DNA of 55,377 bases, filler included, from Candidatus Zhuqueibacterota bacterium (GTDB lineage: Bacteria; BS750m-G25), in the NCBI GenBank assembly GCA_016783505.1. It is 4 parts of 4 records of this genome, joined end to end, with 100 filler letters (N's around TTAATTAATTAA, not from the genome) between each part and the next. Parts side by side here need not be neighbours in the genome. Positions count along the whole stretch, not along the records: positions 41,796 to 55,377 come from JADHWK010000059.1; 3 more parts are not named here. One strand, written 5' to 3'. Under the pieces are notes generated by a model that saw only the letters and a program-made list of their open reading frames with translations, did not search any database and was not told the origin of the DNA. The translations under genes were made by a program, and so were the position numbers. This document shows, in pieces, positions 37,375 to 55,377 of this stretch; the stretch's first letter is position 1, and each line of letters begins with the position of its first letter.

Positions 37375-39414
37375 TTGAAAGATTTAATAGAAAAAACCAT
37401 TTCTCATTATCGAATCATTGAGCCATTGGGGCAAGGGGGAATGGGTGTCGTCTACAAAGCCGAGGACACCAAGCTTAAACGCACTGTTGCACTGAAGTTC
37501 CTGCCTCCAGAGCTAACCCGTGACCCTGATGCCAAAGAGCGCTTTGTCCACGAGGCGCAGGCGGCCTCGGCTCTTCAGCATAACAACGTCTCCACGATTC
37601 ATGAGATTGATGAAACCGATGAAGGACAAATGTTCATATGCATGGATTACTATGAAGGTGAGGCGTTGAATGAAAAGATCAGGAGCGGTCCTATCAAGAT
37701 TGAAGAAGCCCTTGACATTGCCATCCAGGTTGCACAGGGTCTGAATAAGGCACACAAGAAAGGGATCGTGCATCGAGACATCAAGTCGGGAAATATCCTC
37801 GTGACCGAAGACGGCGTAGTGAAAATTGTGGACTTCGGTCTGGCCAAACTGCGTGGGCAAACAAAGCTTACCAAAGAAGGTACTACTTTAGGAACAGCAG
37901 CGTATATGTCTCCCGAACAAGCGCGGGGGGAAGAGGTTGATCACCGGACAGATATCTGGTCGCTGGGTGTTGTTCTTTATGAGATGATTACTGGACAACT
38001 TCCCTTTAAAGGCGATTATGAACAGGCGGTGATCTATTCGATTATGAATGAAGACCCGGAACCAATGACAGGCTTACGAACCGGCGTGCCGAGGGCATTG
38101 GCGCAGGTTGCAGAGAAAGCTATGCGAAAGGACAACGAAGAGCGGTATTCGAAGGTCGATGACATGATAACTAGCCTCAGGTCTTTGAGGAAGAAGCTCG
38201 AATCTGGCCCTTCGGATAAGTTAGAACCAGAATTGACTCTTAGAAAAAGAAGATACATTTACCTCGGCATCACGATTTTGGTCTTCTCTCTCATTGCAGC
38301 AGCTCTCTTTTTCTGGCAAAGAACGGAGACTAGACGGATTGAAGCCATAGTTGCCCGTTTGCAACCCGCTGTGGAGGCCGGTCGCTTTGATGACGTGTTT
38401 GAGATATTAAATGATTCGGGCCTGGAACTTCAAGATGACAGGGTTGAGATGCTTACGAAGCAGGTAGCTGGAACGCTATCAATTCAAAGTACACCCTCGA
38501 AGGCAAAAGTGACTTTGGCTCGCGTTCAATCTACACCCACCTTGTCAGTGGCAGAGCCAGTGAGCATCGGACGCACACCCCTTGAAGGCCATGCGTTAGT
38601 TGCAGGGGAATACTTCGTCAGTATGATGCTCGAGGATATGACACCACTCGAATTTCTTGTACAGGTGGTGCCTGGTGAGTCTTTGCGAATCAACCGTACT
38701 CTTCTCAGGGCGAATAAAGAGTTGGCTGGTATGGTAAGGATTGAGAAGGAAATTTCGCAAAATGGCATCTCAATCCCAGCGTTTTTTATTGATAAACATG
38801 AAGTAACCAACGCGGAATTTTTTAATTTTATCGCTGCCGGCTGTTATAGGGTAAAGAAATTCTGGCCTGAAGATATTATCATAAACGGTAATCCAACTCC
38901 TCGGGAGTCAGCTATAAGAAGTTTCGTTGACCAGACCGGCATACCAGGTCCGCGCTTTTGGTCAGGAGGAAAATATCCAGACGGCAAGGAAGGTCACCCT
39001 GTGGTAGGCATCTCTTGGTATGAAGGAATGGCATATGCTCGCTGGGTGGGAAAAGATCTGCCTACATGGGACCAGTGGTGGCTAGCAGCGCTCAGCGAAA
39101 CCAGCAGTATTTTTCCTTGGGGGAGTGACGTGAGGACAACTCACTTGCGCGCAAACTTCGGGTTGAAAGGTACCCAACCAGTAGAATCTTACCCCTTGGG
39201 AATAAGCCCATTCGGGTGTTTCGACATGGCTGGCAACGTACGGGAGTGGCTGCGCGATTCGGTGTCACCCAGCAGACTTCGCACAGTAGTTGGTGGGTCG
39301 TGGAAAGATCCTTCCTACATGTTTGAACCCTCTCACGCCGAATCGTTTTATCCAGAGTTTGCTGGCGAGGATATTGGGTTTCGATGTGTGAAATCTATTC
39401 CCGATGACCAATAA
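37375..39414 (+). CDS. Ser/Thr kinase - TM - PEGA-like - FGE-sulfatase (SUMF1) protein
   Basis: GQGGMG, HRDIKSGN, DFG, SPE; TM helix; HEVTNAEF, DMAGNVREW, GGSW, GFRCV. Confidence 0.9.
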   Translation: MKDLIEKTISHYRIIEPLGQGGMGVVYKAEDTKLKRTVALKFLPPELTRDPDAKERFVHEAQAASALQHNNVSTIHEIDETDEGQMFICMDYYEGEALNEKIRSGPIKIEEALDIAIQVAQGLNKAHKKGIVHRDIKSGNILVTEDGVVKIVDFGLAKLRGQTKLTKEGTTLGTAAYMSPEQARGEEVDHRTDIWSLGVVLYEMITGQLPFKGDYEQAVIYSIMNEDPEPMTGLRTGVPRALAQVAEKAMRKDNEERYSKVDDMITSLRSLRKKLESGPSDKLEPELTLRKRRYIYLGITILVFSLIAAALFFWQRTETRRIEAIVARLQPAVEAGRFDDVFEILNDSGLELQDDRVEMLTKQVAGTLSIQSTPSKAKVTLARVQSTPTLSVAEPVSIGRTPLEGHALVAGEYFVSMMLEDMTPLEFLVQVVPGESLRINRTLLRANKELAGMVRIEKEISQNGISIPAFFIDKHEVTNAEFFNFIAAGCYRVKKFWPEDIIINGNPTPRESAIRSFVDQTGIPGPRFWSGGKYPDGKEGHPVVGISWYEGMAYARWVGKDLPTWDQWWLAALSETSSIFPWGSDVRTTHLRANFGLKGTQPVESYPLGISPFGCFDMAGNVREWLRDSVSPSRLRTVVGGSWKDPSYMFEPSHAESFYPEFAGEDIGFRCVKSIPDDQ

Positions 39415-39435
39415 AGAAACAAGGAGGAACTGCAA

Positions 39436-40374
39436 ATGAATTACTATTTTCGTTTGGCAATGCTTCTCATCGTGGGGTTGTTTGCAATTCTATCAGCCTT
39501 AATCGCTCAAGAGCAAGCCTCCGATGAGTGGTTAGCACAGCCTGTTGACGATCAGACCTTCCAAACGCACTTGGATTTTTTTACTTACGACCAAACCTTA
39601 CCATTTGAACTCCAATCGATTGGTGTGAAAGAGTACGAAGGAATAAGAAAGGAGCATTTGTCTTTCCAAAGCACACCTGGTGTGCATGTTTTTGCGAACT
39701 TATACAGTCCCATCGGGCTATCTTCAAAAAACGGACCTGCCCTGATTCTTCTTCATGGTGGTTCTCCGGGAGGAAAAGATAGTCCGTATGTCGATGATAC
39801 TGCAAAGCTTCTGATGCGGGCCGGTTGGATAGTACTGGCTGTAGACTTTCAGTATTTTGGGGAGCGAAGTACTAGTTTGTTGACTACATTCACGGAAGAA
39901 GATAAGCACGATCGACTCTATAACCAGCCTTCCATGTATCTCGCATGGATGATCCAAAATGTAAAGGATATTGGCAGATCGTTTGACTTTCTTGTAGACC
40001 AGATAGGTGTTGATCCCAAACGCATCGGTCTCATTGGTATCAGCCGTGGTGCGCAAGTCGGGGCAATTGTTGGCGGAGCAGAGCGCAGGCTGGTTGCAAT
40101 TGTGTTACTTCACGGAGGCCATTTTGACGCATTGGAGCGGGGCCATCTGCCGGCGGCATGCCCTGCCAACTATATTGGTCGCATAAGCCCCCGTCCACTG
40201 CTTATGATAAATGGCACCCGTGACACCGATTACAATAAGGATACTTCGGTCCTGCCTCTTTACAGGCTGGCAAAGCCCCCTAGAAAGATTATTTGGGTCG
40301 AGGGCGGCCACGGATCTTTTACGGAGGAAGTTCGCTCAGCTATGTTACGGTGGCTGCAAGAGAACGTTAAGTGA
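39436..40374 (+). CDS. Secreted alpha/beta hydrolase (dienelactone hydrolase / acetyl esterase-like)
   Basis: Signal peptide, LLHG, GISRG nucleophile elbow, NGTRD, GGHG. Confidence 0.85.
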   Translation: MNYYFRLAMLLIVGLFAILSALIAQEQASDEWLAQPVDDQTFQTHLDFFTYDQTLPFELQSIGVKEYEGIRKEHLSFQSTPGVHVFANLYSPIGLSSKNGPALILLHGGSPGGKDSPYVDDTAKLLMRAGWIVLAVDFQYFGERSTSLLTTFTEEDKHDRLYNQPSMYLAWMIQNVKDIGRSFDFLVDQIGVDPKRIGLIGISRGAQVGAIVGGAERRLVAIVLLHGGHFDALERGHLPAACPANYIGRISPRPLLMINGTRDTDYNKDTSVLPLYRLAKPPRKIIWVEGGHGSFTEEVRSAMLRWLQENVK

Positions 40375-40431
40375 GGTTGCGATTCATCAGCATAATAAAT
40401 TGTGATGGCATGAAAATCAAATGAATGAATC

Positions 40432-41695
40432 ATGATCGGCAAAACCATATCGCATTACAAAATTCTCGAAAAGCTTGGCGAGGGTGGCATGGGGGTTGTG
40501 TACAAGGCCGAGGACATCAAACTTAAACGCACCGTTGCCCTTAAGTTCCTGCCGCCGGAATTAACCCGGGACGAGGAAACAAAGGAGCGCTTCATCCACG
40601 AGGCGCAGGCGGCCTCGGCTCTTCAGCATAACAACGTATCCACGATTCATGAGATTGATGAGACCGATGAAGGACAAATGTTCATATGCATGGATTACTA
40701 TGAAGGTGAGACGTTGAAAGATAAGATTAAACATGGGCCACTCAAAATAGAAGAAGCTCTCAACATTGCTGTCCAGGTTGCTAAAGGTCTGGAAAAAGCC
40801 CATGAACAGGGGATTGTACACAGGGACATCAAACCTGCCAACATTATGATTACTAATGATGGAGTGGTTAAAATCGTGGATTTTGGGCTGGCCAAGTTAG
40901 CCGGGCAGACCGGGCTCACAAGGAATGATACGACCATGGGTACAGTGTCGTATATGTCACCTGAGCAGACGCGTGGCGAAGGGGTTGATCATCGAACAGA
41001 TATTTGGTCTTTAGGCGTTGTTCTTTATGAAATGATCACCGGGCAATTACCATTTAAAGGAGAATATGAACAAGCGGTGATTTATTCGATTTTGAATGAA
41101 GACCCAGAGCCAGTGAAGGCGCTACGGACTGGCATTCCGATGGAGCTTGAGCGGATATTGAATAAGGCTTTGTTAAAAAATGCGGGCGAACGTTACCAAC
41201 TCGTAGACAAGATGTTGGATGATATGAGATGGCTTCAAAAATCATTAGAAATAGGGATTATAGAACAACGACTAACCAAGATTGTTTCTCCTTATAGGTG
41301 CCGGATCGCGGTATTGCCCCTTACCAATATCAGTCCTAATCCGGAAGATGAATATTTTGCTGATGGCATGACAGAGGAACTCATTTCAACGCTATCTAAA
41401 ATTAATGAATTAAGAGTCATCGCCCGTACGTCTATTATGCAATATAAAAATATAGCGAAGAGCGTCGCTGAAATTGGTCGAGAATTGAAGGTTGGCAATG
41501 TACTCGAAGGCAGCATCCGAAAAGCCGCCAACAAGCTGCGTATTACGGTACAGCTCATAGATTCACAAAGTCAAGAGTATCTCTGGTCGCAAGATTATGA
41601 TCGAGAGTTCAAGGACATATTTACGATACAAAGCGATATCGCCCATAGGGTTGCAGACGCGTTGAGAGTCCAATTAATGGGGGGAGAACAGAAAC
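40432..41695 (+). CDS. Ser/Thr kinase with TolB-like/TPR-associated domain, 3' truncated
   Basis: Kinase motifs, then IAVLPL.NIS....EYFADGMTEELI, VIARTS, LEGSIR. Confidence 0.92.
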
Positions 41696-41795
41696 NNNNN
41701 NNNNNNNNNNNNNNNNNNNNNNNNNNNNNNNNNNNNNNNTTAATTAATTAANNNNNNNNNNNNNNNNNNNNNNNNNNNNNNNNNNNNNNNNNNNN
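41696..41795. other. Artificial contig linker
   Basis: N-run + TTAATTAATTAA + N-run. Confidence 0.98.
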
Positions 41796-42292
41796 TCGGG
41801 ACGGGGATCGGGACCAGCGTAGAAGACGAGGATTTCGACCTGGGGGGGCTACGGTACGGAAAGGTCATAATAATGACCGACGCCGACGTGGACGGGGCCC
41901 ACATCCGCACCCTGCTGCTAACCTTCTTCTACCGCTATATGCGTCCCTTAGTGGACTTCGGAAATATCTACATCGCCCAGCCCCCGTTGTTCCGGATAAA
42001 AAAAGGGAAACAGCAAGTATATGCCTACGACGAGGAGGAGAGGGATGAGGTCCTGAAGCGGCTGGGGGATCATGGGGTGGGTATTCAACGGTATAAGGGT
42101 TTGGGAGAGATGAACCCCGATCAGCTCTGGGAGACCACCATGGACCCCGAACGCCGCACCGTAGTTAGGGTAACGGTAGAGGACGCCGCTGCTGCCGATA
42201 AGGTTTTCACTACCCTAATGGGAGGAGACGTGGAACCCCGGCGGTTATTCATTGAAGCGAATGCGAAGTATGTGAGGAATTTGGACATATAA
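41796..42292 (+). CDS. gyrB: DNA gyrase subunit B, 3' part
   Basis: [34 protein letters not shown]. Confidence 0.96.
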
Positions 42293-42564
42293 AAGTTCTT
42301 TCCAATTGGAATTGATAGTAAAACTTATTTATTGAAAAATATTCATAAATTGCATTAAAAACCGTAATTTAATATTTCCTATTCCAATTAAAAACAAATT
42401 CTTACCTATTGTTTAATGGATTAATAGTAATAAAAAAGAGTTGTCTAAAAAGTCAAATAATTTTAAATTGTGGGCAGATATTGAATCTTATCATAATTTA
42501 GTGAGTAAAGATAGGTTTACTTGCTAATTAAAGGATAAAGTAAAACAAACGTCAGGAGGAAGTA

Positions 42565-43152
42565 ATGTATACATTTCAAGCTTTACAAATTTTGATATTT
42601 CTTATTCCAGGGTTTATTTCGGCAACAATTTTGGATGTTTTTATCGTTAGAAAAGAGAAAAAGGAGTTTGGAAAAATAATAGAAGCATTAATTTTTTCTA
42701 TGATAATATACATTATTTATTCCTTAATATCTGGTAAAAGTCCTGTTGTATTAAATCAAATTGAAAAATCTATTACTTATTCTTATGATAGTAAGTCTTT
42801 TTTGTTGTTAGGCTTACTTAGTATAGCTACGCCTACAGTATTAAGCTTTCTTATAACAAACGATTGGCATATGAAACTGGCACGAGGGCTACTAATCAGC
42901 AGAAAAACTGCGAGAAGTTCCGTATGGTTTGATGTGTTTTGTGATATAAAAAAACACGTCATAGTAAATTTTGAAAATGGACGTCGAATATATGGATGGC
43001 CGATGTATTATTCTAATAATCCAGAGAACCCTTATATTTTTTTATTTGAACCGTCTTGGGTTGAGGGAGATAAATTTGTCGATTTAGATTTAGAAGGTAT
43101 CTTAATAACACCTGAGCAAAAAATTGAATCAATAGAATTCCTTAAAAGTTAA
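42565..43152 (+). CDS. DUF6338-like membrane protein
   Basis: LIPGF, TM helices, SVW..VF, G..IYGW, EGILI....I..IEF. Confidence 0.7.
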   Translation: MYTFQALQILIFLIPGFISATILDVFIVRKEKKEFGKIIEALIFSMIIYIIYSLISGKSPVVLNQIEKSITYSYDSKSFLLLGLLSIATPTVLSFLITNDWHMKLARGLLISRKTARSSVWFDVFCDIKKHVIVNFENGRRIYGWPMYYSNNPENPYIFLFEPSWVEGDKFVDLDLEGILITPEQKIESIEFLKS

Positions 43153-43178
43153 GTGAAGCGTTAAAAAAGGAGGTATCG

Positions 43179-43295
43179 ATGATTGACAAAGAGAAAAAAG
43201 AACTAAAAAGTGATAAAGGAGGTTATAATCCTCCCCCTAGAGACCACAAGAAGCCCGAGAGACCAACTCCTCCACCGCCACCAAAGGAAAAATAG
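43179..43295 (+). CDS. 38-aa Pro/Lys-rich peptide (absent from the ORF track)
   Basis: AAGGAGG RBS then MIDKEKKELKSDKGGYNPPPRDHKKPERPTPPPPPKEK*. Confidence 0.7.
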   Translation: MIDKEKKELKSDKGGYNPPPRDHKKPERPTPPPPPKEK

Positions 43296-43322
43296 TTGTT
43301 TTAGGCTACATTTGATAACGCC

Positions 43323-43399
43323 TTTAGAGAAACTAAAGTTAACAGAAAAACATTCACCCTTATCAAAAAGAGTTAAAGATTCCTGTGGATGTTGCCTGC
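43323..43399 (+). repeat. Island repeat copy A
   Basis: ...CTAAAGTTAACAGAAAAACATTCACCCTTATCAAAAAGAGTTAAAGATTCCTGTGGATGTTGCCTGC aligns with 45935-46010. Confidence 0.75.
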
Positions 43400-43445
43400 T
43401 CGACAAGACCCATTAAGTTTGACCAAAGACAAACGGAAGGAATCA

Positions 43446-45017
43446 ATGGAACTGAAGGGAAAAAAATATAATCCAAGCGGATTGCCATTTTTACAATCAC
43501 AAATATTAGAACACATTTATCTTAATATTAGCAAGAACCTAAAAACTGAAACAGAAAAGCTATCCAAAATTACCAATTACCCTGCTACTAGCAAGATACT
43601 TTTAGGTGGGATAGATTTATTAGTTAATAAAAAATTTCTTAACGGTTCACTGGATACTGGATTTTCCGTACCTGATGAAAGATTTGATTTTTTTCAAAAA
43701 GTTATCAAAAAGAACGATTACAAAAACAAAACGTACTCAAGAAAATTATTTGATCACCTTGAGAAACAATCTTCACAATTAGAACTGTTTTTAGAAACTA
43801 AAAACATTAGTCAATTAAATCGCTATGGCGTGATCCATAAATGGTATAATTACCTTGAAGATTTTCCTTACTCATTGATAGAAGACAAAATCATTGAATA
43901 CAACTTGAAAGATAATTCACTAGTTGTTGACCCGTTTTGCGGTAGTGGAACGACAATGATAACCGCAAATATGTTTCACCTGGATGCTGTCGGCTTTGAT
44001 GCAAATCCGTTAATGACATATGTATCAAAAGTTAAAACTAATTGGGACATAAATATTGGCGAATTAGAGAAATGGATTAGAAACGTAGCGGAACAGTTTT
44101 TAAAAGGGGTACAGGAGTTATATATTAAACCCCTTAATAATGGCTTTTTAAGGGTAATGCCAAAAAAAGAATTAAATCAATGGTTAAGCCCCAGATTGCA
44201 ACAAGAAGTGTTATTGTTAAAAGATATAATTCTACAAATCCCAGACTTAAAAACAAGAGAACTGTTTTTGTTGGCTATGTCGAAATCTTGCTTTGATGCC
44301 TCATATGTATCACTTTGCCCTGGAACAACCTTTTACCCTTTCAGGGAGAAAGAAGAATTTTGGGATTTATTCACGGATAAAATTATCAAAATGCACGATG
44401 ATTTAAAGGCAATACAAGCCCACAACCATTATGGCAAAACCAAATTAATTACTGACACTTGTTTGAATGCCCAAAATTATCTTGAAGAGGAATCAATCAA
44501 TTTTATTATTACTTCGCCACCCTATCCAAACGATCTAGAATATACCAGACAAACCCGCTTAGAACTTTATTTGCTTGATTTTGTCAGGGGAATGGATGAC
44601 ATCCAAAAGATTAAAAGAAAAATGGCGAAGGGTAGCACTAAACTTATTTTTAAAGAAAGCAATTCGGCGCGTTTTGTTGAAAAATTCGACGAAGTAAGTT
44701 ACATATCAAACGAAGTTTATGAACAAACAAAAAGTAAAAATTGGGGGTTTGATTATCCCAGAATGGTTAGAGAGTATTTCGGTGACATGTATCTGTGCAT
44801 GAAGGAATTTTATCCTTTAATGAAACATAATTCTCGTTTTCTATTGGTTGTAGGCGATCAAACCATAAAAGGTGTTATGATTCCAGTTTGTAATATTTTG
44901 ATAAAGTTGGCCGAAGAAATTGGATATAATAATTGTCGTAAGAAACTTTTCAGGGTTAGAAGGAGCACAGGACACGACATACCATTACCAGAAGAAATAG
45001 TGATTCTTGAAAAATAA
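43446..45017 (+). CDS. Amino-DNA methyltransferase (probably N4-cytosine)
   Basis: Motif I DPFCGSGTT precedes motif IV TSPPY. Confidence 0.9.
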   Translation: MELKGKKYNPSGLPFLQSQILEHIYLNISKNLKTETEKLSKITNYPATSKILLGGIDLLVNKKFLNGSLDTGFSVPDERFDFFQKVIKKNDYKNKTYSRKLFDHLEKQSSQLELFLETKNISQLNRYGVIHKWYNYLEDFPYSLIEDKIIEYNLKDNSLVVDPFCGSGTTMITANMFHLDAVGFDANPLMTYVSKVKTNWDINIGELEKWIRNVAEQFLKGVQELYIKPLNNGFLRVMPKKELNQWLSPRLQQEVLLLKDIILQIPDLKTRELFLLAMSKSCFDASYVSLCPGTTFYPFREKEEFWDLFTDKIIKMHDDLKAIQAHNHYGKTKLITDTCLNAQNYLEEESINFIITSPPYPNDLEYTRQTRLELYLLDFVRGMDDIQKIKRKMAKGSTKLIFKESNSARFVEKFDEVSYISNEVYEQTKSKNWGFDYPRMVREYFGDMYLCMKEFYPLMKHNSRFLLVVGDQTIKGVMIPVCNILIKLAEEIGYNNCRKKLFRVRRSTGHDIPLPEEIVILEK

Positions 45018-45026
45018 TTGGTGATC

Positions 45027-45881
45027 ATGGGAAACGTTCAATTAGAAGCATTTGGTGAATTATTTCAAAGCCAGAATTCAATAAATAGACTTCGCAACAA
45101 TGATTTTGTATGTCCTTTTGATAACCGTATTGATATATGTAACAAACCAAATCGTGGTTCATTGAAATATGGAAATTGTAGTGCCCAGGTTGGTAAATCA
45201 AAACGAATAATATGTCCAAGAAGGTTTTACGAAAGCAATTATCAAATATTGAAAGAAACAAAGAATTTTCTCTGGCCAGACGATATAAATATTGATTGCT
45301 ATGATGAACTGGGAATCAATATCAGAACTTCTAATGGCGATTCATTTCATTACGGGAACATAGATTGGGTTTTAGTGAATCGCCAGAATAGTTCAGATTT
45401 TTGCGGGATTGAGATTCAAACAGATTCCACAACCGGAACAGGTGCATTTAGAAAAGGTATTAAAGATCTATTAAATGGAAATTTAACAGACAATTATAAG
45501 TTTGGATTAAATACTCTTGCATCTTTCAAGGGTTTTTTACCACAATTCATTTTTAAGGGACAGCTATTTGATGATTGGAAAAGGCCTTATTGTGCAGTTA
45601 TTCAAGATGAGTTATGGGAAAAATTCATTAAAAAGTTTAGAATTCGTTACAAAGAGATTACTACATATTCGACAGAGACATTCTTGTTTTTTGTTTACTC
45701 CTTGGAATATAACCCTACCGAAAACAAATACCACATTGGTAGTCATAAAATTTATGCAACGAGGTGGATTGATTTATTGTTCTCGTTTTCTGTTGAAAAG
45801 AAATTTTTGCTCGACTTAGATGACATTAAAAGACGTATTCAGAAAAAAATGAAAAGAAGACAACCAATTATCACGTTTTAG
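45027..45881 (+). CDS. NotI-family type II restriction endonuclease
   Basis: ELF, CPF...CNK...CS...ICPRRF Cys4 site; DWV...GIEIQT catalytic motif; PQ...KG. Confidence 0.8.
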   Translation: MGNVQLEAFGELFQSQNSINRLRNNDFVCPFDNRIDICNKPNRGSLKYGNCSAQVGKSKRIICPRRFYESNYQILKETKNFLWPDDINIDCYDELGINIRTSNGDSFHYGNIDWVLVNRQNSSDFCGIEIQTDSTTGTGAFRKGIKDLLNGNLTDNYKFGLNTLASFKGFLPQFIFKGQLFDDWKRPYCAVIQDELWEKFIKKFRIRYKEITTYSTETFLFFVYSLEYNPTENKYHIGSHKIYATRWIDLLFSFSVEKKFLLDLDDIKRRIQKKMKRRQPIITF

Positions 45882-45934
45882 ATTTATCGAAACAAATAGT
45901 TTAAATTTTCTAAAACAGCCAAGCAGATAGCATC

Positions 45935-46047
45935 TTTTAAAAAGCTAAATTCAAGAAAAAAAATTACCCTTTCCAAAAAGAGGCAAAAATCCTTGTTGGA
46001 TGTTGCCTGCCTGCCCAGGTCTATGGGCGGGTAATCCACTGAAAATT
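45935..46047 (+). repeat. Island repeat copy B (with hairpin)
   Basis: ...ACCCTTTCCAAAAAGAGGCAAAAATCCTTGTTGGATGTTGCCTGCCTGCCCA-GGTCTA-TGGGCGGGTAATCCACTGAAAATT. Confidence 0.75.
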
Positions 46048-46182
46048 CAATAACAACAAATCTGCCCCGACAAATAAACCAATAATTCCGTAAAACAACA
46101 ATTGATTGGTTATTTGGTTAAAAATTACGAAGTTAGTAGTTAAGAAACCCCTTGTTAATGTATTGAAGAATGGGTTGGGTTC

Positions 46183-47304
46183 ATGAGAAGGGAAGCTAAG
46201 ATACTTCTAAAGAGAAGTGTTGATTCATTAGTCTTAGCAGTTGATCATTTCAACAGATCTTGGGATTGTGGGCGTAGAGAAGCGGTTCTCATTTTCTTGG
46301 ACAGAGCATTTGAATTGTTGCTAAAGGCTGTACTTGTGCACCGCGGCGGTCGAATTAGAGCGCCAAAGGCCATGGAGATATTAGGCTTTGACAATTGTCT
46401 CCGTAAATGCTTGAGCGATTTGACAGTGAAGTGCCTGAACGAGGATGATGCACTTACAATTCAAACCATAAATAGTCTTCGTAATGCGGTCCAGCATTAT
46501 ATCCTTGATATATCAGAGCAGTTGCTTTCCCTCTACACGCAGGCAGGATTCACATTGTTTAGGAAATTACTAAAGGCGGTCTTCAATAAAGGTTTATTGG
46601 ACTATTTTCCCGAAAGAATTTTTCCGGTATCCGCCTCTCTACCAGAGGACTTAGCGAGCCTATTCAATACTGATTTCTCTGAAATTAAAGAATTAGTAAC
46701 TTCGGGTAGGGGAAGACGAATACAAGCTCGGGCAAAAATGCGTGCTTTTCTAATCATTGAGTCATCTTTTTCCGGTATACGATCGCAGCCCAGTGAGAAT
46801 AAGTTGGGAAGGTTAATGAGGCGTATAAACGAAGGGAAGGCTTGGACAGATCTTTTCCCAGGAATTGCTACTTTAAAGATCGATTCTAGTGGAGAAGGTA
46901 TTAATGTTTCTGTTAGTATTACTCAAAAAGAGGGAGAACAAATACATTTGGTTCCAGAAGGAATCCCAGGGTCAACCGTTGTAGCTATTAAACATGTAAA
47001 TGAACTTGGCTTTTATTCGTTGGGGTTAAATCAGCTTGCTGAAAAATTGGGGATTTCTGCACCCAAGACAATTGCGTTAATTAAGTACCTTAACCTTCAA
47101 GAATCATCGGATTGCTGCAAGGAAATTCGTATTGGTAGTTCACGGTTTAAAAGATACAGCGCAAAGGCGTTGGATATGCTACAGAAAAGCCTATTAGACG
47201 TCAACATGCAGGAAGTTTGGCTGGAGTATGGACCACGTCGTTCGCCAAAGGATGGGTTAAGAAAGGAAAACAATTCAAATCTTTTCTTTCACGGCGGCCC
47301 CTAA
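46183..47304 (+). CDS. DUF3644-like protein with HEPN-type motif
   Basis: S...AV..FN, AFELLLKA, RNAVQH (RxxxxH). Confidence 0.75.
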   Translation: MRREAKILLKRSVDSLVLAVDHFNRSWDCGRREAVLIFLDRAFELLLKAVLVHRGGRIRAPKAMEILGFDNCLRKCLSDLTVKCLNEDDALTIQTINSLRNAVQHYILDISEQLLSLYTQAGFTLFRKLLKAVFNKGLLDYFPERIFPVSASLPEDLASLFNTDFSEIKELVTSGRGRRIQARAKMRAFLIIESSFSGIRSQPSENKLGRLMRRINEGKAWTDLFPGIATLKIDSSGEGINVSVSITQKEGEQIHLVPEGIPGSTVVAIKHVNELGFYSLGLNQLAEKLGISAPKTIALIKYLNLQESSDCCKEIRIGSSRFKRYSAKALDMLQKSLLDVNMQEVWLEYGPRRSPKDGLRKENNSNLFFHGGP

Positions 47305-47588
47305 ATCGTTTTAGGATGAAAAAAGTATAAGCAATAAAAATTCAACGATTGTTTTTGGCGTTTAGATAAAAGTATTTTTTAATAATTAATCAAGAAAAGC
47401 TGAATATGTTTGCTATTTATCGGAAAGGGACCCTTGTAATATTTGGGAGGTTTGTATGGTAAAGTTATACGATAAAGACAATGAAATGGATTTTACAAAG
47501 GGGGTGAGATAATGCCTGTTAATGTCTGGATGATATGGATGACTTTTCCGATTACAAGAAAAAACAGAAGGAAAAACAAAAGATTAAA

Positions 47589-49637
47589 ATGAAATGCCTG
47601 ATCATCGCTGCCGGGCGAGGAAGCAGACTATCAACTAGGGGAGATTCAAAGCCCCTCATTCCTCTCCTGGGATTATCCCTTATCGAACGGGTGATATTAA
47701 CCGCAAAAAAGAGCGGTCTTACTGATTTCTTTGTGGTGACAGGGTACAAAGGTAAAAAGGTAAGGCAACACCTTAACAGATTTAGCCAGAGCAGAAACAT
47801 AAATATAACCCATATCATAAAAGAGGATTGGGAGAAGGGAAACGGCATATCTGTCCTTAAGGCAAAAGAATTATTAAATGAGAATTTTATTCTGTTGATG
47901 GGGGATCACGTCTTTGACGAATCAATACTGGTAAGACTAAAGAACGAAAGAATACTCGATGGCAAAGTTGTGCTGGCCGTAGATTATAACATTAAAACCA
48001 ACAACCTCGTTGATGTCACCAAAGTTCTTGTCGAAGACAACAGGATTTTAGATATAGGAAAGAATATCAAGAAATACAACGCTTATGATACAGGAAATTT
48101 TCTTTGTTCTCCGGCAATATTCAGTGCCATCGAAGAAAGTTTGTCTAATGGTAACGATTCTCTTTCAAGTGGAATGGGGGTAATGGCTGAAAAAGGGAAG
48201 GTTAAAGCCATAGACATTAAAAATTCTTACTGGGTTGAGGTGAATACAAAGAACGATTGCAGAAAAGCCGCCAAGCTATTGTATGGTGAGTCAATAAAAC
48301 CGGCCGGTCCAATTACTCGATATATCAATGCGACATTTGCCACCAGGATTTTTACACCCCTTCTTCTTAAAATATATAAAAAATTTACCCCCAATCAGGT
48401 CTCCATATTGAGTTTTGTTGTAGCTATTATAAGCAGCTTAAGTTTTGTTCTTAGTCATGCGATTACAGGAGGTTTATTGATACAACTATCAAGTATTTTG
48501 GACTATAGTGATGGGCAAATATCACGAATCAAGCATATGGAGTCCCGTTTTGGACATTTCATTGACACAACCCTTGACCGCTATGACGATGGTTTCATAC
48601 TTTTAGGGATGTTTTATTACTCACTATCCCAAATAGGGAGTAAAGAGATACTGGGGATTTATTGGAGCCCTTTGATCATTAGTAGCATTTCCATATTAGC
48701 GATCATAGGGAACCTGATGGTCAGTTACACTTCCGCAACATCGGTGGTTAATTTTGGCTATGTATATAAAAGGAGATGGATTGCTGCTGGAAGAGGGAGA
48801 GACATTAGACTATTTCTACTTTTCGTCGGGGGAATAATGAGCTATTTTCATCCGATTTTTGTATTACTTGCCTTGTTTATTATGGCCTTACAAACCAATA
48901 TAATTGTAATATGGCGAATTATTTTATCATGGAATTATTATAACAAAGAGGGTGCTTTCAGGATGATGAGAAGAATTAAAGCAATTATTTTTGATTTTGA
49001 TGGAACAGTAGCAAATACAATGCCTTTCTTAACAGAGTTGGCTGTAAATCTTATTACTGAGAACTATAACATCTCAAAAGAAGATGCTGAAAGAAAGTAT
49101 TTAGAGACGACCGGATTAGATTTTGCGAGCCAGTTGGGGACAATTTTTCCAGACAATCCCAGCAACCAGAAAGTGGCCGCTATCTTTGAGGAAAGTAAGT
49201 TAAGGGGTGTTTTCGACCATCCCCTCTTCCCCGATGTCATACCCACCCTGGACCATTTTAGAAAAAAGAAAATCAAGATGTTTGTTTGCAGCAGTACCAA
49301 ACAAAGGATAATTACAAAATATGGCCAGTTAAACAAAATTGATGATTTGATGGATAACCTTTTTGGTTATGAACCCGGTTTCAAAAAGGGAGACCAGATT
49401 GATTTCATCCTTCAGCACTATAAATTGCGACCTGACGAAGTGGTTTTTGTGGCGGATTCTTTAAGAGATCATGGTTTTGCTGAAGAAAGAAAATTAAATT
49501 TTATCGGTATTTCTAAAATTTTTGAGAAAAAAGAGTTTCAGAATAAGGGGGCATTAAGCGTTAGTAGCCTGAATGATCTTAGGAAGCTTTTTGATACATC
49601 TTACAATTATCTCAAATATGTTGAAAAGGTAAGATGA
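47589..49637 (+). CDS. Three-domain fusion: NTP transferase (IPCT-like), CDP-alcohol phosphotransferase (DIPPS-like), HAD phosphatase
   Basis: IIAAGRGSRL..KPL; TPNQVS and DYSDGQISR...GHFIDTTLD; FDFDGT...SST...ADSLRD. Confidence 0.88.
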   Translation: MKCLIIAAGRGSRLSTRGDSKPLIPLLGLSLIERVILTAKKSGLTDFFVVTGYKGKKVRQHLNRFSQSRNINITHIIKEDWEKGNGISVLKAKELLNENFILLMGDHVFDESILVRLKNERILDGKVVLAVDYNIKTNNLVDVTKVLVEDNRILDIGKNIKKYNAYDTGNFLCSPAIFSAIEESLSNGNDSLSSGMGVMAEKGKVKAIDIKNSYWVEVNTKNDCRKAAKLLYGESIKPAGPITRYINATFATRIFTPLLLKIYKKFTPNQVSILSFVVAIISSLSFVLSHAITGGLLIQLSSILDYSDGQISRIKHMESRFGHFIDTTLDRYDDGFILLGMFYYSLSQIGSKEILGIYWSPLIISSISILAIIGNLMVSYTSATSVVNFGYVYKRRWIAAGRGRDIRLFLLFVGGIMSYFHPIFVLLALFIMALQTNIIVIWRIILSWNYYNKEGAFRMMRRIKAIIFDFDGTVANTMPFLTELAVNLITENYNISKEDAERKYLETTGLDFASQLGTIFPDNPSNQKVAAIFEESKLRGVFDHPLFPDVIPTLDHFRKKKIKMFVCSSTKQRIITKYGQLNKIDDLMDNLFGYEPGFKKGDQIDFILQHYKLRPDEVVFVADSLRDHGFAEERKLNFIGISKIFEKKEFQNKGALSVSSLNDLRKLFDTSYNYLKYVEKVR

Positions 49638-49641
49638 GGCC

Positions 49642-49709
49642 GCAGAACTCCTTGTGGACATTTCCCGCCTACCAGCAACCCGATTGGGTCGGGTCATCCA
49701 CCGAAAATT
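49642..49709 (+). repeat. Island repeat copy C (with hairpin)
   Basis: GCAGAACTCCTTGTGGACATTTCCCGCCTACC...GGGTCGGGTCATCCACCGAAAATT aligns with 45983-46047. Confidence 0.65.
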
Positions 49710-49769
49710 AAGTAATGTGGTTAGTCGAAACGTTTTTCATCTTTCAAAGACATGGATAAGGGGTCTAAT

Positions 49770-51248
49770 ATGAAAACACTTCTCGTTTATCCAGATTATC
49801 CGGACACTTTCTGGAGTTTTAAGTACGCATTAAAATTCATATTTAAAAAGGCCACTCACCCGCCCCTGGGGTTATTGACTGTGGCTGCGATGCTTCCTGA
49901 GGAGTGGGAGAAAAGACTTGTAGACATGAATGTATCAGCATTAACCGATAGAGACCTTGAATGGGCTGATTATGTGTTTATTAGTGCTATGTCTATCCAG
50001 AAACAATCGGTAAAAGAAATCATCACCAGGTGCAAGAAAATAGGCGTTAAGACTGTGGTTGGTGGTCCTCTTTTTACTACTGGACATGAAGATTTTGATG
50101 ATGTAGATCATTTTGTGCTTAATGAGGCAGAAATTACGCTGCCGCCATTTTTAGAAGATTTGAGAAACGGTTGTGCTAAGCACATTTATACCTCTAAAGA
50201 ATTACCGGACATAGAAAAGACGCCCATTCCGTCCTGGGGACTTATCAACATGAAAAGATATTTATCTATGAATATCCAGTATTCCCGGGGCTGTCCTTTT
50301 AATTGTGAATTCTGCGACATCAGGGTGCTTTATGGCGATAAGGTGCGAACGAAGGGAAAAGGCCAGATATTAGCCGAATTAGAAAACCTGTACTCCCAGG
50401 GCTGGCGGGGTGGAGTATTTTTTGTTGATGATAACTTTATAGGAAACAAGAGAAAGTTAAAAAAGGAGATTTTGCCCGCAACAATTGAATGGATGGAGAG
50501 AAAAAAACATCCCTTTGCTTTTAATACGGAGACATCCATAAATCTTTCCGACGATGATGAACTCATGCAATTGATGGTTAAGGCAGGATTTGATTCAGTA
50601 TTTGTTGGTATTGAGACACCGAACGAGGAAAGTCTTGTAGAATGTAATAAGTTTCTGAACAGAAACCGTGATTTAGTAGCCTGCGTAAAGAAGATTCAGA
50701 GATTTGGTTTACAGGTACAAGGGGGATTCATTGTGGGTTTTGATAATGATCCCCTTTCAATTTTCGAAAGGCTTATTGCATTTATTAAGGAAAGTGGAAT
50801 TGTCACCGCCATGGTTGGGTTATTAAATGCTCCTCGTGGCACAGGACTTTACCATCGTCTTGAAAAAGAGAATCGGTTGTTAAAAGATGTTACCGGTGAC
50901 AATACAGACTGCTCAATTAATTTCATTCCAAAAATGAACTATGACACGCTTATTGATGGTTATAAAAAGATTCTCAATACAATTTATTCTTCAAAACATT
51001 ACTACAAAAGAGTTAAGGGGTTTTTAAGAGAATATAAGCCGTTGCAAAAAAAGGGGTTTCGCTTTCATTTCAATCACATTGGAGCACTCTTCAAATCGGT
51101 ATTATTTTTAGGGATAATAGGGAGAGAACGGTTTCAATACTGGAAACTTTTTTTCTGGTCTTTGTTCAGGCGCCCAAGACTTTTTCCATTGGCAATCACT
51201 TTTGCGATCTACGGATTCCATTTTCGAAAGGTTTTTGAGAATTACTGA
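49770..51248 (+). CDS. B12-binding radical SAM protein (DUF4070)
   Basis: PPLGLLTVAA, SRGCPFNCEFC, FVDDNFIG, GFIVGFD. Confidence 0.93.
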   Translation: MKTLLVYPDYPDTFWSFKYALKFIFKKATHPPLGLLTVAAMLPEEWEKRLVDMNVSALTDRDLEWADYVFISAMSIQKQSVKEIITRCKKIGVKTVVGGPLFTTGHEDFDDVDHFVLNEAEITLPPFLEDLRNGCAKHIYTSKELPDIEKTPIPSWGLINMKRYLSMNIQYSRGCPFNCEFCDIRVLYGDKVRTKGKGQILAELENLYSQGWRGGVFFVDDNFIGNKRKLKKEILPATIEWMERKKHPFAFNTETSINLSDDDELMQLMVKAGFDSVFVGIETPNEESLVECNKFLNRNRDLVACVKKIQRFGLQVQGGFIVGFDNDPLSIFERLIAFIKESGIVTAMVGLLNAPRGTGLYHRLEKENRLLKDVTGDNTDCSINFIPKMNYDTLIDGYKKILNTIYSSKHYYKRVKGFLREYKPLQKKGFRFHFNHIGALFKSVLFLGIIGRERFQYWKLFFWSLFRRPRLFPLAITFAIYGFHFRKVFENY

Positions 51249-51268
51249 AATTTAAAAGGGAGATCAGA

Positions 51269-51574
51269 ATGAATATCTATGTGGGCAATTTGTCAACTGA
51301 GGTCACCGAAGAGGATTTGCAACAGGCCTTTGAGGCCTTCGGGCAGGTCACATCCGCCACCGTTATAAAGGACATGTTCAGCGGCGTATCAAGAGGGTTC
51401 GGATTCGTGGAGATGCCCGCCAAAGCGGAAGCCCAGTCCGCCATCACCGGCCTGAGCGGCAAAGATTTGAAGGGCCAAATACTTAACGTTAATGAGGCTC
51501 GCCCCCGATCCGAGGGCCGCCGGGGTAGAGGAGGACGAGGCGGGGGAAGAAAGGGTGGTGGGCGGCGCTTCTAA
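51269..51574 (+). CDS. RRM RNA-binding protein (paralog of 33770-34075)
   Basis: IYVGNL, RGFGFVEM, Gly/Arg tail. Confidence 0.95.
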   Translation: MNIYVGNLSTEVTEEDLQQAFEAFGQVTSATVIKDMFSGVSRGFGFVEMPAKAEAQSAITGLSGKDLKGQILNVNEARPRSEGRRGRGGRGGGRKGGGRRF

Positions 51575-51697
51575 TAAGCGAGATGAAACCCCATAAAGAT
51601 TGTTGGTGTTGAGTGATTTGGACGAGAGAAGTATTGGTGATGAGTGTTGTTGCAAAACCACCCGTAGCCCCCTTTTATTAGTTAATGAAAACATTTT

Positions 51698-52207
51698 GTG
51701 AAGGGCCTGGTGAAAAAGATCAACGTACGACTCTTGTTGCCATCGGACTTACCCGCAATTCAAAAAGTCGCTTTGGAAACTTGGTCAGATACGTACGGCT
51801 CTTTCATCCCCGAAGAAGACATTTTAGAGGATCATAATAAACACTGCAACATAGAAGCACTCGGTAAACTTTATAAAAAGCGAGATGGGATGGTGGGCGA
51901 GGTAGATAATGAAGTTGTGGCTTATTCAACTTGTGGATTGAATGAAGAAATGAATCGATATCATATATATTCTCTATACATTTTGCCGGATTACCAAGGT
52001 CATGGGTTGGGTAAGAAACTACTAGGCCTGGCCTATGAAAAAGCCAAGGAATTGGGTTTTGATAGAGTTTGGTTAGGAGTTATGGAGAAGAACACCAAAA
52101 CCCTGGAATGGTATCGGTCTCAAGGGTTTCAATTTGTGGAAGAAGAACCCTTCACCATGGGAAAAACCATTGTTAATTGTCTGAATGGCTACAAATTGAT
52201 ATCGTAG
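51698..52207 (+). CDS. GNAT acetyltransferase
   Basis: LYILPDYQGHGLGKKLL, N.....WY...GF. Confidence 0.9.
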   Translation: MKGLVKKINVRLLLPSDLPAIQKVALETWSDTYGSFIPEEDILEDHNKHCNIEALGKLYKKRDGMVGEVDNEVVAYSTCGLNEEMNRYHIYSLYILPDYQGHGLGKKLLGLAYEKAKELGFDRVWLGVMEKNTKTLEWYRSQGFQFVEEEPFTMGKTIVNCLNGYKLIS

Positions 52208-52717
52208 AGCATTTCAGCAAATTCCGTTTCCAACCATAAATTGTTCAAAGCCATACTGATATTTGTCTTAAGGGACTGTGATGCAACCCTGAAATTGCTG
52301 ATTCGGAGTTTCAAATAAACCCGTCCATACATATCCGTCTGGATAAACGGGTAACTCCAACTGGCGGAGTTATCCCGAAACTTCGGGGTTTATTAGATTA
52401 TATGTCCTATCTTGTCTAGGTGTTTACACTATGGTTAACAGATTCTTCTCAAAATGTCCCATTAATAACTCACGCTACTGACCATAAAATTACCTCCTTT
52501 CTAAAACGGTTTTGTTCGTTATATATACCCAAGAAAGAAAGCTTTATCGAACAGTGATTCACAACCCCATTAAAAGAAAATAGTAGGTCCCTAAAAAAGA
52601 ACAATAACATAAAAGTGTAAACACCCCCTCAAGATAATACAGATTTATACAATAGATAGTTCTGCCACAGGGCTTTAAGGATAAAATCTCCCATCTCGAA
52701 ATACTTGAATCATAAAA

Positions 52718-55210
52718 ATGTGTGCCATTCAGCGAGAGAAGATTATTCCCATTAACATCGAGGAGGAGATGAAGGACTCCTACCTCGATTACTCCATGTC
52801 GGTGATCGTATCCCGGGCCCTGCCTGACGTGCGGGACGGATTAAAACCAGTCCACCGCCGGGTCCTCTACGGCATGAACGACATGGGGCTTCAACACAAT
52901 AAGCCCTACAAGAAATCGGCCCGTATCGTGGGCGATGTGATGGGAAAATACCACCCCCACGGAGACGCCGCCATCTACGATACCATGGTGCGTATGGTGC
53001 AGGACTTTTCCCTCCGCTACCCCCTGGTGGACGGTCAGGGGAACTTCGGCTCCATTGATGGGGATGGAGCGGCGGCCATGCGGTATACCGAGGCCCGGAT
53101 GGCCGAGATAGCCGAGGAGATACTGGCCGATATCGAAAAAGACACCGTGGGTTTTGTGCCCAACTACGACGATACCCTGAAGGAACCCTCTGTCCTACCC
53201 GCAAAGCTCCCCAACCTGCTGGTCAACGGGGCCTCGGGGATCGCCGTGGGGATGGCCACCAATATTCCACCCCATAACCTTTCCGAGATTGTGGATGGGA
53301 TCGTTACCCTTATTGATAATCCCGATATTACAGCCGATGGGTTAATGAATTACATCATCGCCCCGGACTTCCCCACCGGGGGGATCATCTACGGTAAAAG
53401 GGGGGTGAGGGATGCCTATGAGACGGGAAGGGGACGGGTGGTCATCCGAGCCCGGGCCAGCGTGGAAGCGCTCAAAGGGGGGCGGGACCGGATCGTCATC
53501 TCCGAGGTTCCATATCAGGTTAACAAGGCCCGGTTGATCGAAAAGATCGCCGAACTGATCAAAGAAAAGGTCATCACTGGTGTGTCCGAAATCCGTGACG
53601 AATCGGATCGGGACGGCATGCGGGTGGTGATGGAGCTGAAGCGGGAGGGCGTACCCGAGGTCATCCTAAACCAGATCTACCAGCACACCCAGGCCCAGTC
53701 TACCTTCGGGGTGATCATGCTGGGGCTGATGGACGGCCAGCCCCGGGTGCTCAACCTGAAGGAGATGCTCCAGGCCTTTATTGACCACCGCCATGAGGTG
53801 GTCTTAAGACGGACGAAGTTTGACCTGGAGAAGGCCCGGGAACGGGCCCACATCCTGGAGGGGCTGAAGATCGCCGTTGACAACATAGACGAGATCGTGG
53901 CCCTGATCAAGGGGTCAAAGAATCCCGAGGAGGCCAGGGTGGGACTGATGGTGAGATTTAAGCTCTCAGAGGTTCAGGCCAGGGCTATCCTGGATATGAG
54001 GCTTCAACGCCTTACCGGTCTGGAAAGACGAAAACTAGTGGATGAACTTCGGGCCCTGAGTGAGCTCATAGTGGAGCTTTCCAACATACTGGAAAGCAAG
54101 GAGCTTCAATTGGGGATCATCAAGGACGAGTTGGCTGAGATGAAGGAGAAATACGGGGACGGTCGTCGAAGCGAGGTGGTGGAGACGACAGAGGAATTCT
54201 CCATTGAGGACATGATCGCCGAGGAGGACATGGTGATCACCATTTCCCACCGGGGTTTTATCAAGCGTTTCCCTGTCTCCGGCTTCCGCCGTCAGCAGAG
54301 GGGGGGGAAGGGTTCCACCGGGGCGGGCACCGTCGAGGAGGACTTCATCGAGCATATGTTCGTTGCCTCCACCCATCACTACATTCTCTTCTTCACCGAC
54401 AAGGGCCGCTGCTACTGGCTCAAGGTTCATCAAATCCCCCAGGCGGGGAAGGCCTCTAAGGGTCGGGCCATAGTTAATTTATTGGAAAAACAGCCCGAAG
54501 AGAAGATAGCCGCCTTCGTGACGGTACGCGAGTTTAATCCCGAACTCTTCGTGGTGATGGCCACCCGCAGAGGAATAGTTAAAAAAACCCCCTTGGTGGA
54601 TTACAGTCACCCCCGGCGAGGGGGAATCAATGCCATCACCATCAGGCCCGACGATCAGCTCATCGAGGCTCGGATTACGGACGGAACTAACGACATCATT
54701 CTGGGAACCCGGGGGGGGAAGGCCATCCGTTTCCATGAGAGCGACGTCAGGTCTATGGGACGGACCGCAGCCGGGGTTCAAGGGGTGAAAGTGTCGGGCG
54801 AGGACGCCGTGGTGGGGATGGTGATTATCAAGCGGGATTCCACCATACTGGTAGTGACCGAGAAGGGTTACGGCAAGCGCACCGGGGTGAAGGACTATCG
54901 CATCACCCACCGCGGGGGGAAGGGGATCATCACCATCAAGACCACCCCCAAGGTGGGCCGGATGGTGGCCATCAAGGAGGTGGTGGACGATGACGATTTG
55001 ATGATCATCACCGCCGCAGGGATCCTCATCCGTCAGCATGTGGGCCGCATCAAGGTCATCGGCCGCAATACCCAGGGGGCGAGGCTGATCAATCTAAGGG
55101 AGGAAGATGAGATCGGGGATGTGGCCCGGGTGGTGAGGCAGGAGGAGATGGAAGAGGAGTCCCCCGAGGAATATGTAGGTTCGGAAGAAACGGAAACAGG
55201 AAAGACTTAG
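52718..55210 (+). CDS. gyrA: DNA gyrase subunit A
   Basis: [13 protein letters not shown] active-site Tyr, GyrA-box QQRGGKG, C-terminal pinwheel repeats. Confidence 0.98.
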
Positions 55211-55241
55211 GTTTTTACTTTTATTACTTCAGCAAAAACAG

Positions 55242-55273
55242 AAAAACCAGTACCCTTTTAGGGCTGGTTTTTT
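55242..55273 (+). terminator. Rho-independent terminator after gyrA
   Basis: AAAAACCAG-TA-CCCT-TTT-AGGG-CTGGTTTTTT. Confidence 0.8.
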
Positions 55274-55377
55274 GTTTGTTTAAAACAACAAGATCAATAG
55301 TCCCCAGTTTAAAATTTATATCCTGCCGAGAAGTAGACGATATCATTTTCTTCCCAAGATTTCCCCCCAAATAGCCT

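Follow-up and report, generated by a model that had tools for sequence, protein, structure and literature searches.

The window analyzed here, a stretch of 55,377 nucleotides from the Candidatus Zhuqueibacterota assembly GCA_016783505.1, carries a gene, P0001, in which an IPCT-like NTP transferase, a CDP-alcohol phosphotransferase and a HAD domain are joined in one open frame (Table 1). We read P0001 as belonging to a neofunctionalized branch of IPCT-DIPPS-HAD fusions in which two of the three domains still work, and which may use a donor provided in trans to make a glycerol-type phosphodiester, either diglycerol phosphate (DGP) or glycerophosphoinositol (GPI). We hold this reading with slightly less than even confidence; the observations on which it is built are the domain architecture, the clade to which P0001 belongs, its residue pattern and its gene neighbours. 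The initial annotation had instead proposed a three-step, one-protein route to di-myo-inositol phosphate (DIP). That route fits the parent family, but probably not P0001 itself, in view of the decay of its IPCT domain, the changes in its transferase pocket and its changed neighbours.

The three-domain fusion and its subclade

The three domains all score above the curated Pfam cut-offs (NTP_transf_3 at residues 3-134, NTP_transferase at 3-125, CDP-OH_P_transf at 267-427 and HAD_2 at 466-640), and the single frame described initially stands. We place its start at the ATG from which the relatives (685 aa) also begin; in the database the gene is called from 47535, with 18 more residues that have no counterpart in them. 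By sequence, the best match in the PDB is the IPCT/DIPPS of A. fulgidus, 4MND (E 1e-44), which is also the best match by fold (Foldseek E 7e-27, using an AlphaFold model with pLDDT 90). The top NCBIfam match is again IPCT/DIPPS (NF041135, a Thermococcales model), at 250 bits against a cut-off of 580, which is a weak test because intact relatives miss this cut-off too (276-292 bits).

The fusion had been suspected to be recent, or its HAD part to be internally initiated behind a GAGGG that resembles a ribosome-binding site. The first suspicion is refuted, and the second finds no support. Nearly all of the 120 best matches in a family search have the same architecture, and a further 113 full-length relatives with all three domains were found (660-725 aa, 48-78% identity). 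With blastn, six loci of the subclade described below each give one continuous match, at 77-82%, through the junction. By homology, then, the fusion is real and old, and neither a sequencing error nor a recent event accounts for it. The GAGGG encodes E-G and does not recur at the equivalent place in the six other subclade DNAs checked, so that no conserved internal ribosome-binding site was found; the linker Met459 occurs in all 33 subclade proteins and in 26 of the 100 others, and internal initiation is unsupported, though conceivable. In contigs of four public runs from three studies, the best of which may be the source sample, no indel or joint lies inside the gene among the pieces listed, and none of those listed (1050 further pieces exist) spans 48930-48965. 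Because no listed piece bridges this interval, the continuity of the junction is supported by homology and not by reads.

In the parent family, ino1 lies directly upstream of the fusion in 5 of the 23 three-domain loci with enough flank and is present in all three genomes tested. The parent fusion, which is widespread, probably makes DIP, as far as can be judged from sequence. These and the following neighbour counts drop 11 of 108 loci, which had no transferase match, and count one locus (L037) as two-domain although it extends into the HAD domain. Among 40 sampled bacteria there were four carriers of a two-domain fusion and none of a three-domain one.

P0001 falls into a subclade of 33 among 133 distinct sequences, marked by the signature DY[SC]DGQ and supported at 1.0 in a tree of the transferase domain, where P0001 branches first, and at 0.998 in a tree of the HAD domain. 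Its named members are mostly metagenome-assembled genomes of Deltaproteobacteria/Desulfobacterota, and its sequences and loci are interrelated, so that the counts given for them are not independent. What is novel relative to the parent fusion is the subclade, its fixed pocket changes and a partner module consisting of an HxGH cytidylyltransferase and an MFS transporter. We found no description of the three-domain fusion or the subclade in the literature searched, a search outside of which lay most subscription papers and the primary DIP papers.

The N-terminal domain is probably inactive

We compared the fate of family-invariant columns in the three domains of the subclade. In the IPCT domain, 21 of 60 such columns have turned variable and none is fixed for a different residue. 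In the transferase domain, 7 of 67 are fixed-different and 3 are variable, and in the HAD domain none is fixed-different and 4 of 50 are variable. All domains are under purifying selection in the 16 subclade pairs compared (ratio of nonsynonymous to synonymous divergence, dN/dS, 0.26 for IPCT, 0.15 for the transferase and 0.21 for HAD); dS outside the subclade is largely saturated, so that dN/dS is not fairly comparable between clades.

The three conserved IPCT aspartates (106, 217 and 219), which we take to be metal-binding, also by analogy to Glu216 of LicC, are all kept in none of the 33 subclade members, as against 99 of the 100 proteins outside it. Because dN/dS is low while these aspartates decay, the fold appears to be kept and the catalytic residues not. 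The decay, which touches the G-loop, D106, T144, D217 and D219, differs from lineage to lineage. In P0001 we find N78K, I170N, D217E (48237-48239), D219N (48243-48245) and a 3-codon deletion after D142 (48012-48014), with N78K, D219N and the deletion at columns that are 99-100% conserved in relatives. The WVEVNT reported initially in place of WxDxDT is indeed present in frame, and we rejected private pseudogenization as its cause because the change is clade-wide. Since the IPCT of T. maritima has Glu at the position equivalent to 217, it is D219N, the deletion and the clade pattern that carry the argument. The N-terminal domain of P0001 is thus probably inactive and retained as a folded scaffold, and we infer from the residue pattern a pseudo-enzyme domain that stands beside a domain of shifted specificity.

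One subclade fusion (L011, 1-1500) lacks the first 103 residues and lies against a fabH-like gene on the opposite strand. This could be either a natural loss of the N-terminal half of a dead domain or a chimeric assembly.

The transferase domain keeps its catalytic residues in an altered pocket

In the AlphaFold model, the transferase domain consists of a juxtamembrane helix and six long helices. P0001 keeps the catalytic D305, D308, D326 and D330 and the phosphate-site residues S379, R331, R407 and R443. Throughout the subclade (33/33), the catalytic aspartates are kept together with the equivalents of R94, S132, Y133, R155 and R195, which form the main site for the acceptor phosphate (PMC4634129, PMC6506517). 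The class I CDP-alcohol phosphotransferase motif, D1xxD2G1xxAR...G2xxxD3xxxD4 (PMC4634129), is complete (8/8 residues) in 32 of the 33 members and matched at 7 of 8 residues in P0001. Because the catalytic and acceptor-phosphate residues are kept, the transferase should stay active, with a phosphorylated acceptor and a soluble donor.

The fixed changes of the subclade include R248A, S251A, G306Y (48504-48506), E310Q, A327I/T (T in P0001), K384T and G395R. Seven fixed transferase changes fall at family-conserved columns, three of them at residues that line the donor or the acceptor pocket, as mapped by sequence alignment to the mycobacterial and Renibacterium phosphatidylinositol phosphate synthases (PIPS). 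G306 aligns with M69 of Mt PgsA1, which touches the donor substituent from the second transmembrane helix (PMC4634129). A327 and K384 align with A90, where bulk hinders the inositol ring, and with R137, whose change to Q halves activity (PMC6506517). R248 and S251 belong to the juxtamembrane helix, which forms a wall of the donor pocket, and the polar D405 stands where the lipid-using PIPS has P153. The donor and acceptor of P0001 are probably smaller than CDP-inositol and inositol-1-phosphate, if the aligned residues play equivalent roles.

A cytidylyltransferase and a transporter accompany the subclade

An HxGH cytidylyltransferase (PF01467) of 138 aa is encoded upstream of the fusion in 5 of 6 subclade loci, and in none of the 23 other three-domain or 41 two-domain loci. 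It is accompanied in 4 of the 6 by an MFS transporter of the OPA family (GlpT/UhpC-like). Circumstantially, a match to the cytidylyltransferase lies apparently on the same contig for 6 of 26 subclade proteins and 1 of 91 others. The partner is rare in genome samples (3/401 and 2/401). In the source genome, the cytidylyltransferase (86%) and the transporter (79%) are found on contig C5 (40534-42294, with the cytidylyltransferase at 40534-40962), unlinked from the fusion; a motif scan of this genome for further transferases returned PssA-, PgsA- and PIPS-like ones only.

The same cytidylyltransferase family occurs beside a PgsA-like transferase in two other genomes (G356 and G222), and LicD lies near its relatives in 9 of 16 viral loci, where 21 hand-picked neighbours were scanned. 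These neighbours suggest that the family makes the donor for CMP-releasing transferases.

The initial annotation had noted that ino1 is lacking from the window, and we likewise found none in the source genome, which is 60% complete. In one subclade locus (L012), a 27-codon stub of the ino1 3' end is left between the transporter gene and the fusion, directly before the latter.

Several further observations concern the partner genes. The cytidylyltransferase relatives of the viral contigs (L166-L181) have an MFS gene directly behind them in 3 of 16 cases. The C5 operon has a second copy (L093, 3953-4390; G000:C43) that has suffered deletion; what is left of it is about 32 codons of the gene for the HxGH cytidylyltransferase and 61 of the porin-like gene. 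Another operon (L095, 3326-6753; G000:C3) encodes a PfkB kinase, 40% like the kinase beside the L009 fusion, together with a GlpT-like MFS transporter and secreted proteins, and is a possible polyol or inositol salvage route. Finally, two LicC/PntC-like nucleotidyltransferases (L092, 9618-10538; L162, 10436-11536) carry an N-terminal extension, which is a helix-turn-helix by Pfam in L162 and ribbon-helix-helix-like by eye in L092; such proteins are possibly regulators of the uptake module.

The HAD domain and competing phosphatases

The DxD of the HAD domain, reported initially as intact, is present (D469/D471) along with S568/S569, K600 and D623/D627; PF13419 scores 68 bits, and 98% of the HAD-invariant columns are kept. 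The domain alternates with the HD-type DUF4202, which is encoded after the fusion in 20 of 55 two-domain but in none of 28 three-domain loci. Because HAD thus occupies the slot that DUF4202 fills elsewhere, its role as a product phosphatase is credible, and by analogy the fused HAD is a plausible phosphatase for a phosphorylated phosphodiester product.

An IMPase gene competes for this role. It follows the fusion in all 6 subclade loci and in 4 of 22 other three-domain loci. The IMPase of Thermotoga has reportedly been shown to dephosphorylate phosphorylated DIP (DIPP). In one figure legend, IMP is labelled as the DIPP phosphatase (PMC8397731). The operon-type IMPase was not found in the source genome, whose single IMPase is 23% identical. 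Of the initial proposal that the HAD domain is a dedicated DIPP-type phosphatase, the intact motifs and the alternation with DUF4202 support the phosphatase, while the IMPase neighbours weaken the word dedicated.

Other combinations of these domains also occur. P0398 and P0402 are IPCT-DIPPS-DUF4202 fusions, with DUF4202 in the same third slot as HAD. Members of this HAD subfamily are joined, too, to distant CDP-alcohol transferases, of which some have a degenerate N-terminal domain, and to a bare NTP transferase (proteins with other fusions of this subfamily are P0290, P0292, P0294, P0371, P0314, P0325, P0337 and P0394).

A proposed pathway and its alternatives

In the pathway we favour, the OPA-family transporter would import a small organophosphate, most likely glycerol-3-phosphate, which the stand-alone HxGH cytidylyltransferase would convert to a CDP-alcohol; in the source genome, the C5 pair would do so in trans. 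The membrane domain of P0001, with a donor pocket narrowed by G306Y and an acceptor pocket that is reshaped but would still bind phosphate, would then join this donor to a phosphorylated polyol. With glycerol-3-phosphate as acceptor the product would be diglycerol phosphate-phosphate, and with inositol-1-phosphate, glycerophosphoinositol phosphate. The terminal phosphate would be stripped by HAD itself, or by the IMPase encoded after the fusion at other loci, to leave a soluble phosphodiester of the DGP/GPI type. DGP and GPI are made by a CDP-glycerol route, and DIPPS is said to accept CDP-glycerol.

A more far-reaching account, which we regard as doubtful though conceivable, is that marine sulfate reducers and a candidate phylum harbour a DIP synthase on its way to becoming a new enzyme: an uptake module of the OPA transporter and the HxGH cytidylyltransferase would have displaced ino1, the built-in IPCT would have died and the membrane domain would have been rebuilt at about seven positions, with HAD finishing a product that is either DGP or an undescribed phosphonate-ester solute.

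A number of observations weigh against the glycerol-type pathway. Because the C5 pair is unlinked from the fusion and has a LicC/PntC-like protein before it, a porin-like gene after it and no transferase alongside, it may serve something else. The cytidylyltransferase scores 41.9 bits with the TagD model TIGR01518, below the cut-off of 165.4, and matches HldC (5X9Q, E 2e-11) and the Fom1 domain (5X3D, E 3e-10) better than TagD (1COZ, E 5e-6), which makes glycerol-3-phosphate as its substrate a guess; the transporter scores under every GlpT/UhpC cut-off. P0001 alone carries A312S, which breaks a residue of the transferase signature. Because its IPCT domain keeps the G-loop (G9-x-G11-x-R13), K21 and D106, some IPCT activity is possible. 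Inositol-1-phosphate is not always lost in the subclade, since in L010 the 3' end of an ino1 gene is seen farther upstream, where the contig stops, and an intact ino1 lies elsewhere in G001.

The HxGH enzyme might instead activate an imported phosphonate, or phosphoethanolamine or phosphocholine, which the transferase would attach to a polyol phosphate; with hydroxyethyl-, aminoethyl- or dihydroxypropyl-phosphonate, such salvage would yield a phosphonate-ester solute. The cytidylyltransferase aligns with the Fom1 domain over its full length, has an AepX fusion to phosphoenolpyruvate (PEP) mutase as its best plasmid match, forms a tandem fusion with a Fom1-type domain in P0242, and is paired with LicC/PntC-like proteins in G000, G356, P0246 and P0252. 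The two families described as enriched at ppm are PF01467 and PF12804 (PMC6697681), and 2 of the 6 genomes that carry the cytidylyltransferase also have a true PEP mutase. Against these ties, there is no Ppm motif in 26 loci around the cytidylyltransferase or the fusion, and no Ppm fusion among 22 longer homologues of the cytidylyltransferase. In addition, two Ppm clusters have a fused cytidylyltransferase of their own, and Ppm was not found in the incomplete genomes G000, G001 and G002 (we rejected a PEP-mutase match in G002 as under cut-off and without the motif). We consider such a phosphonate or amino-alcohol donor unlikely on balance.

It is less likely again that the product is a membrane lipid with its head group attached in a Kennedy-type reaction, from a CDP-alcohol and a diacyl/dialkyl-glycerol or ceramide, as proposed for a Bacteroidetes cluster. 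That cluster combines MIPS, an NTP transferase, a CDP-alcohol transferase and a HAD, with a transferase-HAD fusion in P. veroralis, and two of its carriers have an inositol sphingolipid (PMC9246714). In G356 and G222 the HxGH/MFS module stands with PgsA-like transferase, SDR and FabH-like genes, and the loss of R248, E310 and K384 would make the pockets less polar. P0001 nevertheless retains all phosphate-binding acceptor residues and, in the model, the six-helix architecture of enzymes with soluble acceptors, without the extra helices of those with lipid acceptors (PMC4634129); it places the polar D405 and the bulky Y306 in the groove used by lipid donors, and its nearest structures, 4MND and AF2299, are soluble-substrate enzymes.

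That all three domains of P0001 work, and convert CTP and inositol-1-phosphate to DIP as initially proposed, appears very unlikely, well as the model fits the parent family with its ino1 genes. In its favour are the kept G-loop, K21 and D106, together with an intact D167; the 78-95% identity, window by window, of residues 1-160 to the intact, non-subclade P0050; the Glu at 217 shared with T. maritima; and the PIPS-like gene of the genome, which implies a source of inositol phosphate. Against it stand D219N, N78K and the deletion at almost invariant columns, G306Y in the donor pocket with the other fixed changes, and the fact that no ino1 was found in the 60% complete genome. There is just as little to recommend an orphan gene that has been cut from its operon and is starting to decay, with HAD alone or nothing in use: both operon neighbours are lost at this locus, homology breaks off upstream some 20 nt short of the ATG and downstream at the stop, the lesions A312S, I170N and the deletion are private and the gene lies in a mixed low-GC block, but the frame is intact, dN/dS against five subclade relatives is about 0.15-0.26 per domain (well below 1, for which reason we rejected whole-gene decay), the HAD-invariant columns are nearly all kept and the partner genes are present in the same genome.

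Relation to known systems

The IPCT/DIPPS of A. fulgidus (4MND, 2XME; NF041135) matches P0001 in the order of its two domains and in their fold (TM score 0.88, 28% identity). With it and the T. maritima IPCT (4JD0) as comparators, P0001 has the four catalytic aspartates and the phosphate-binding arginines in common. P0001 differs from IPCT/DIPPS in its C-terminal HAD, in the Asn that replaces the second Asp of WxDxD, in its NF041135 score and in three motifs, where DGCDGE has become DYSDGQ, INR has become INA and SYTSxK has become SYTSAT; it would also be fed by a separate HxGH cytidylyltransferase.

AF2299 of A. fulgidus (4O6M, 4O6N, 4Q7C) is likewise a transferase with an N-terminal cytidylyltransferase-like domain, which is presumably inactive. 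Unlike P0001, it still has DGCDGE, INR and the Lys that corresponds to K384, and it lacks a HAD, and by these residues the changes of P0001 are independent of AF2299. It was crystallized with CDP-glycerol bound in a donor pocket that is small and hydrophilic (PMC4634129, PMC8633023).

Among published systems, the closest precedent is the cluster of MIPS, NTP transferase, CDP-alcohol transferase and HAD in Bacteroidetes, with its two-domain fusion, known as an alternative inositol-lipid cluster from Bacteroides vulgatus and Prevotella (PMC9246714). We liken the two by description; as described there, the functions of the cluster are unconfirmed, its proposed product is a lipid, and the three-way fusion, the pocket changes and the HxGH/MFS module do not feature in the description. 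Cytidylyltransferases of the Fom1/AepX type (PF01467) and the PntC/LicC type (PF12804) are known (PMC6697681), and the partner module uses both families. It differs from them in having no linked PEP mutase and ESTSH in place of the GDDW motif.

These comparisons make several questions accessible. Which phosphatase finishes DIP-type solutes becomes testable with a soluble protein, by setting HAD alone against the neighbouring IMPase and DUF4202. The same holds for how phosphodiester solutes without inositol are made, for example DGP, an osmolyte of A. fulgidus whose enzymes were called unexplored in a 2005 review (PMC1224877). Because P0050 and P0001 are about 70% identical, a few residue swaps could reveal what sets the donor and acceptor specificity of CDP-alcohol phosphotransferases. 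The database label of these proteins, 'CDP-L-myo-inositol myo-inositolphosphotransferase', belongs to the kind from which DIP and adaptation to pressure are inferred for deep-sea genomes, and can be wrong for the subclade.

Genomic setting of the fusion gene

The window joins four unrelated contigs (C73-C76) through N spacers at 14050-14149, 27952-28051 and 41696-41795. The true context of the fusion gene is therefore 41796-55377 (C76) alone, and genes across a spacer are not neighbours. The source genome is the sole representative of its phylum.

Table 1. Coordinates of the fusion gene, its parts and the surrounding block
Feature	Position	Strand	Basis or content
Three-domain fusion gene P0001	47589..49637	+	one open frame, 682 aa
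IPCT-like NTP transferase domain	47589..48284	+	Pfam, alignment
CDP-alcohol phosphotransferase domain	48297..48938	+	Pfam, AlphaFold model
In-frame linker	48939..48971	+	GAGGG 48948-48952; Met459 48963-48965
HAD domain	48972..49634	+	all four HAD motifs
Low-GC accessory block	42293..52717	.	gyrB 3' end to gyrA; Pfam, GC

The fusion gene lies in an accessory block of about 10.4 kb, with GC content at third codon positions at the 6th-18th percentile, as against the 99th for gyrA. Besides the fusion, the block encodes DUF6338, a methyltransferase and a NotI-like endonuclease, DUF3644, a B12-radical SAM protein (DUF4070), an RRM protein and a GNAT. The initial annotation had placed the gene on an island. 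The low-GC block between gyrB and gyrA bears this out in part, while no tRNA, integrase, mobility genes or boundary repeats were found in it and a simple pattern scan for attC gave none, so that we rejected an integron or integrase island. A gyrB-gyrA joint, seen in two runs with just 27 letters on one side, was rejected as an empty site. Scans for promoters and terminators were at chance level (10 vs 8.1 and 2 vs 2.2).

Within the block, an 87-nt direct repeat (43314-43399 and 45926-46010, 76%) flanks the pair of methyltransferase and NotI-like endonuclease (43389-45881), as if this restriction-modification module had moved as one unit. A 245-bp element at 52400-52644, with 31-nt inverted ends and parts that are 89-93% like the ends of contigs C84 and C23, is probably an insertion sequence remnant or a miniature inverted-repeat transposable element. 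The B12-radical SAM and RRM pair (49752-51574) has a partial copy on C75 (33754-34413, 87-92%), and 3 of 16 extended loci (L126, L134 and L135) have radical SAM genes beside or near those for IPCT/DIPPS that look similar, as far as their N-terminal sequence alone can tell. Elsewhere in the window, the gene at 14561-16768 (minus strand) looks by eye like a cysteine desulfurase fused to the selenophosphate synthetase SelD (735 aa). At 37375-41695, also judged by eye, two paralogous Ser/Thr kinases that are 78% alike over 670 bp adjoin an anti-sigma antagonist and a SpoIIE-type phosphatase.

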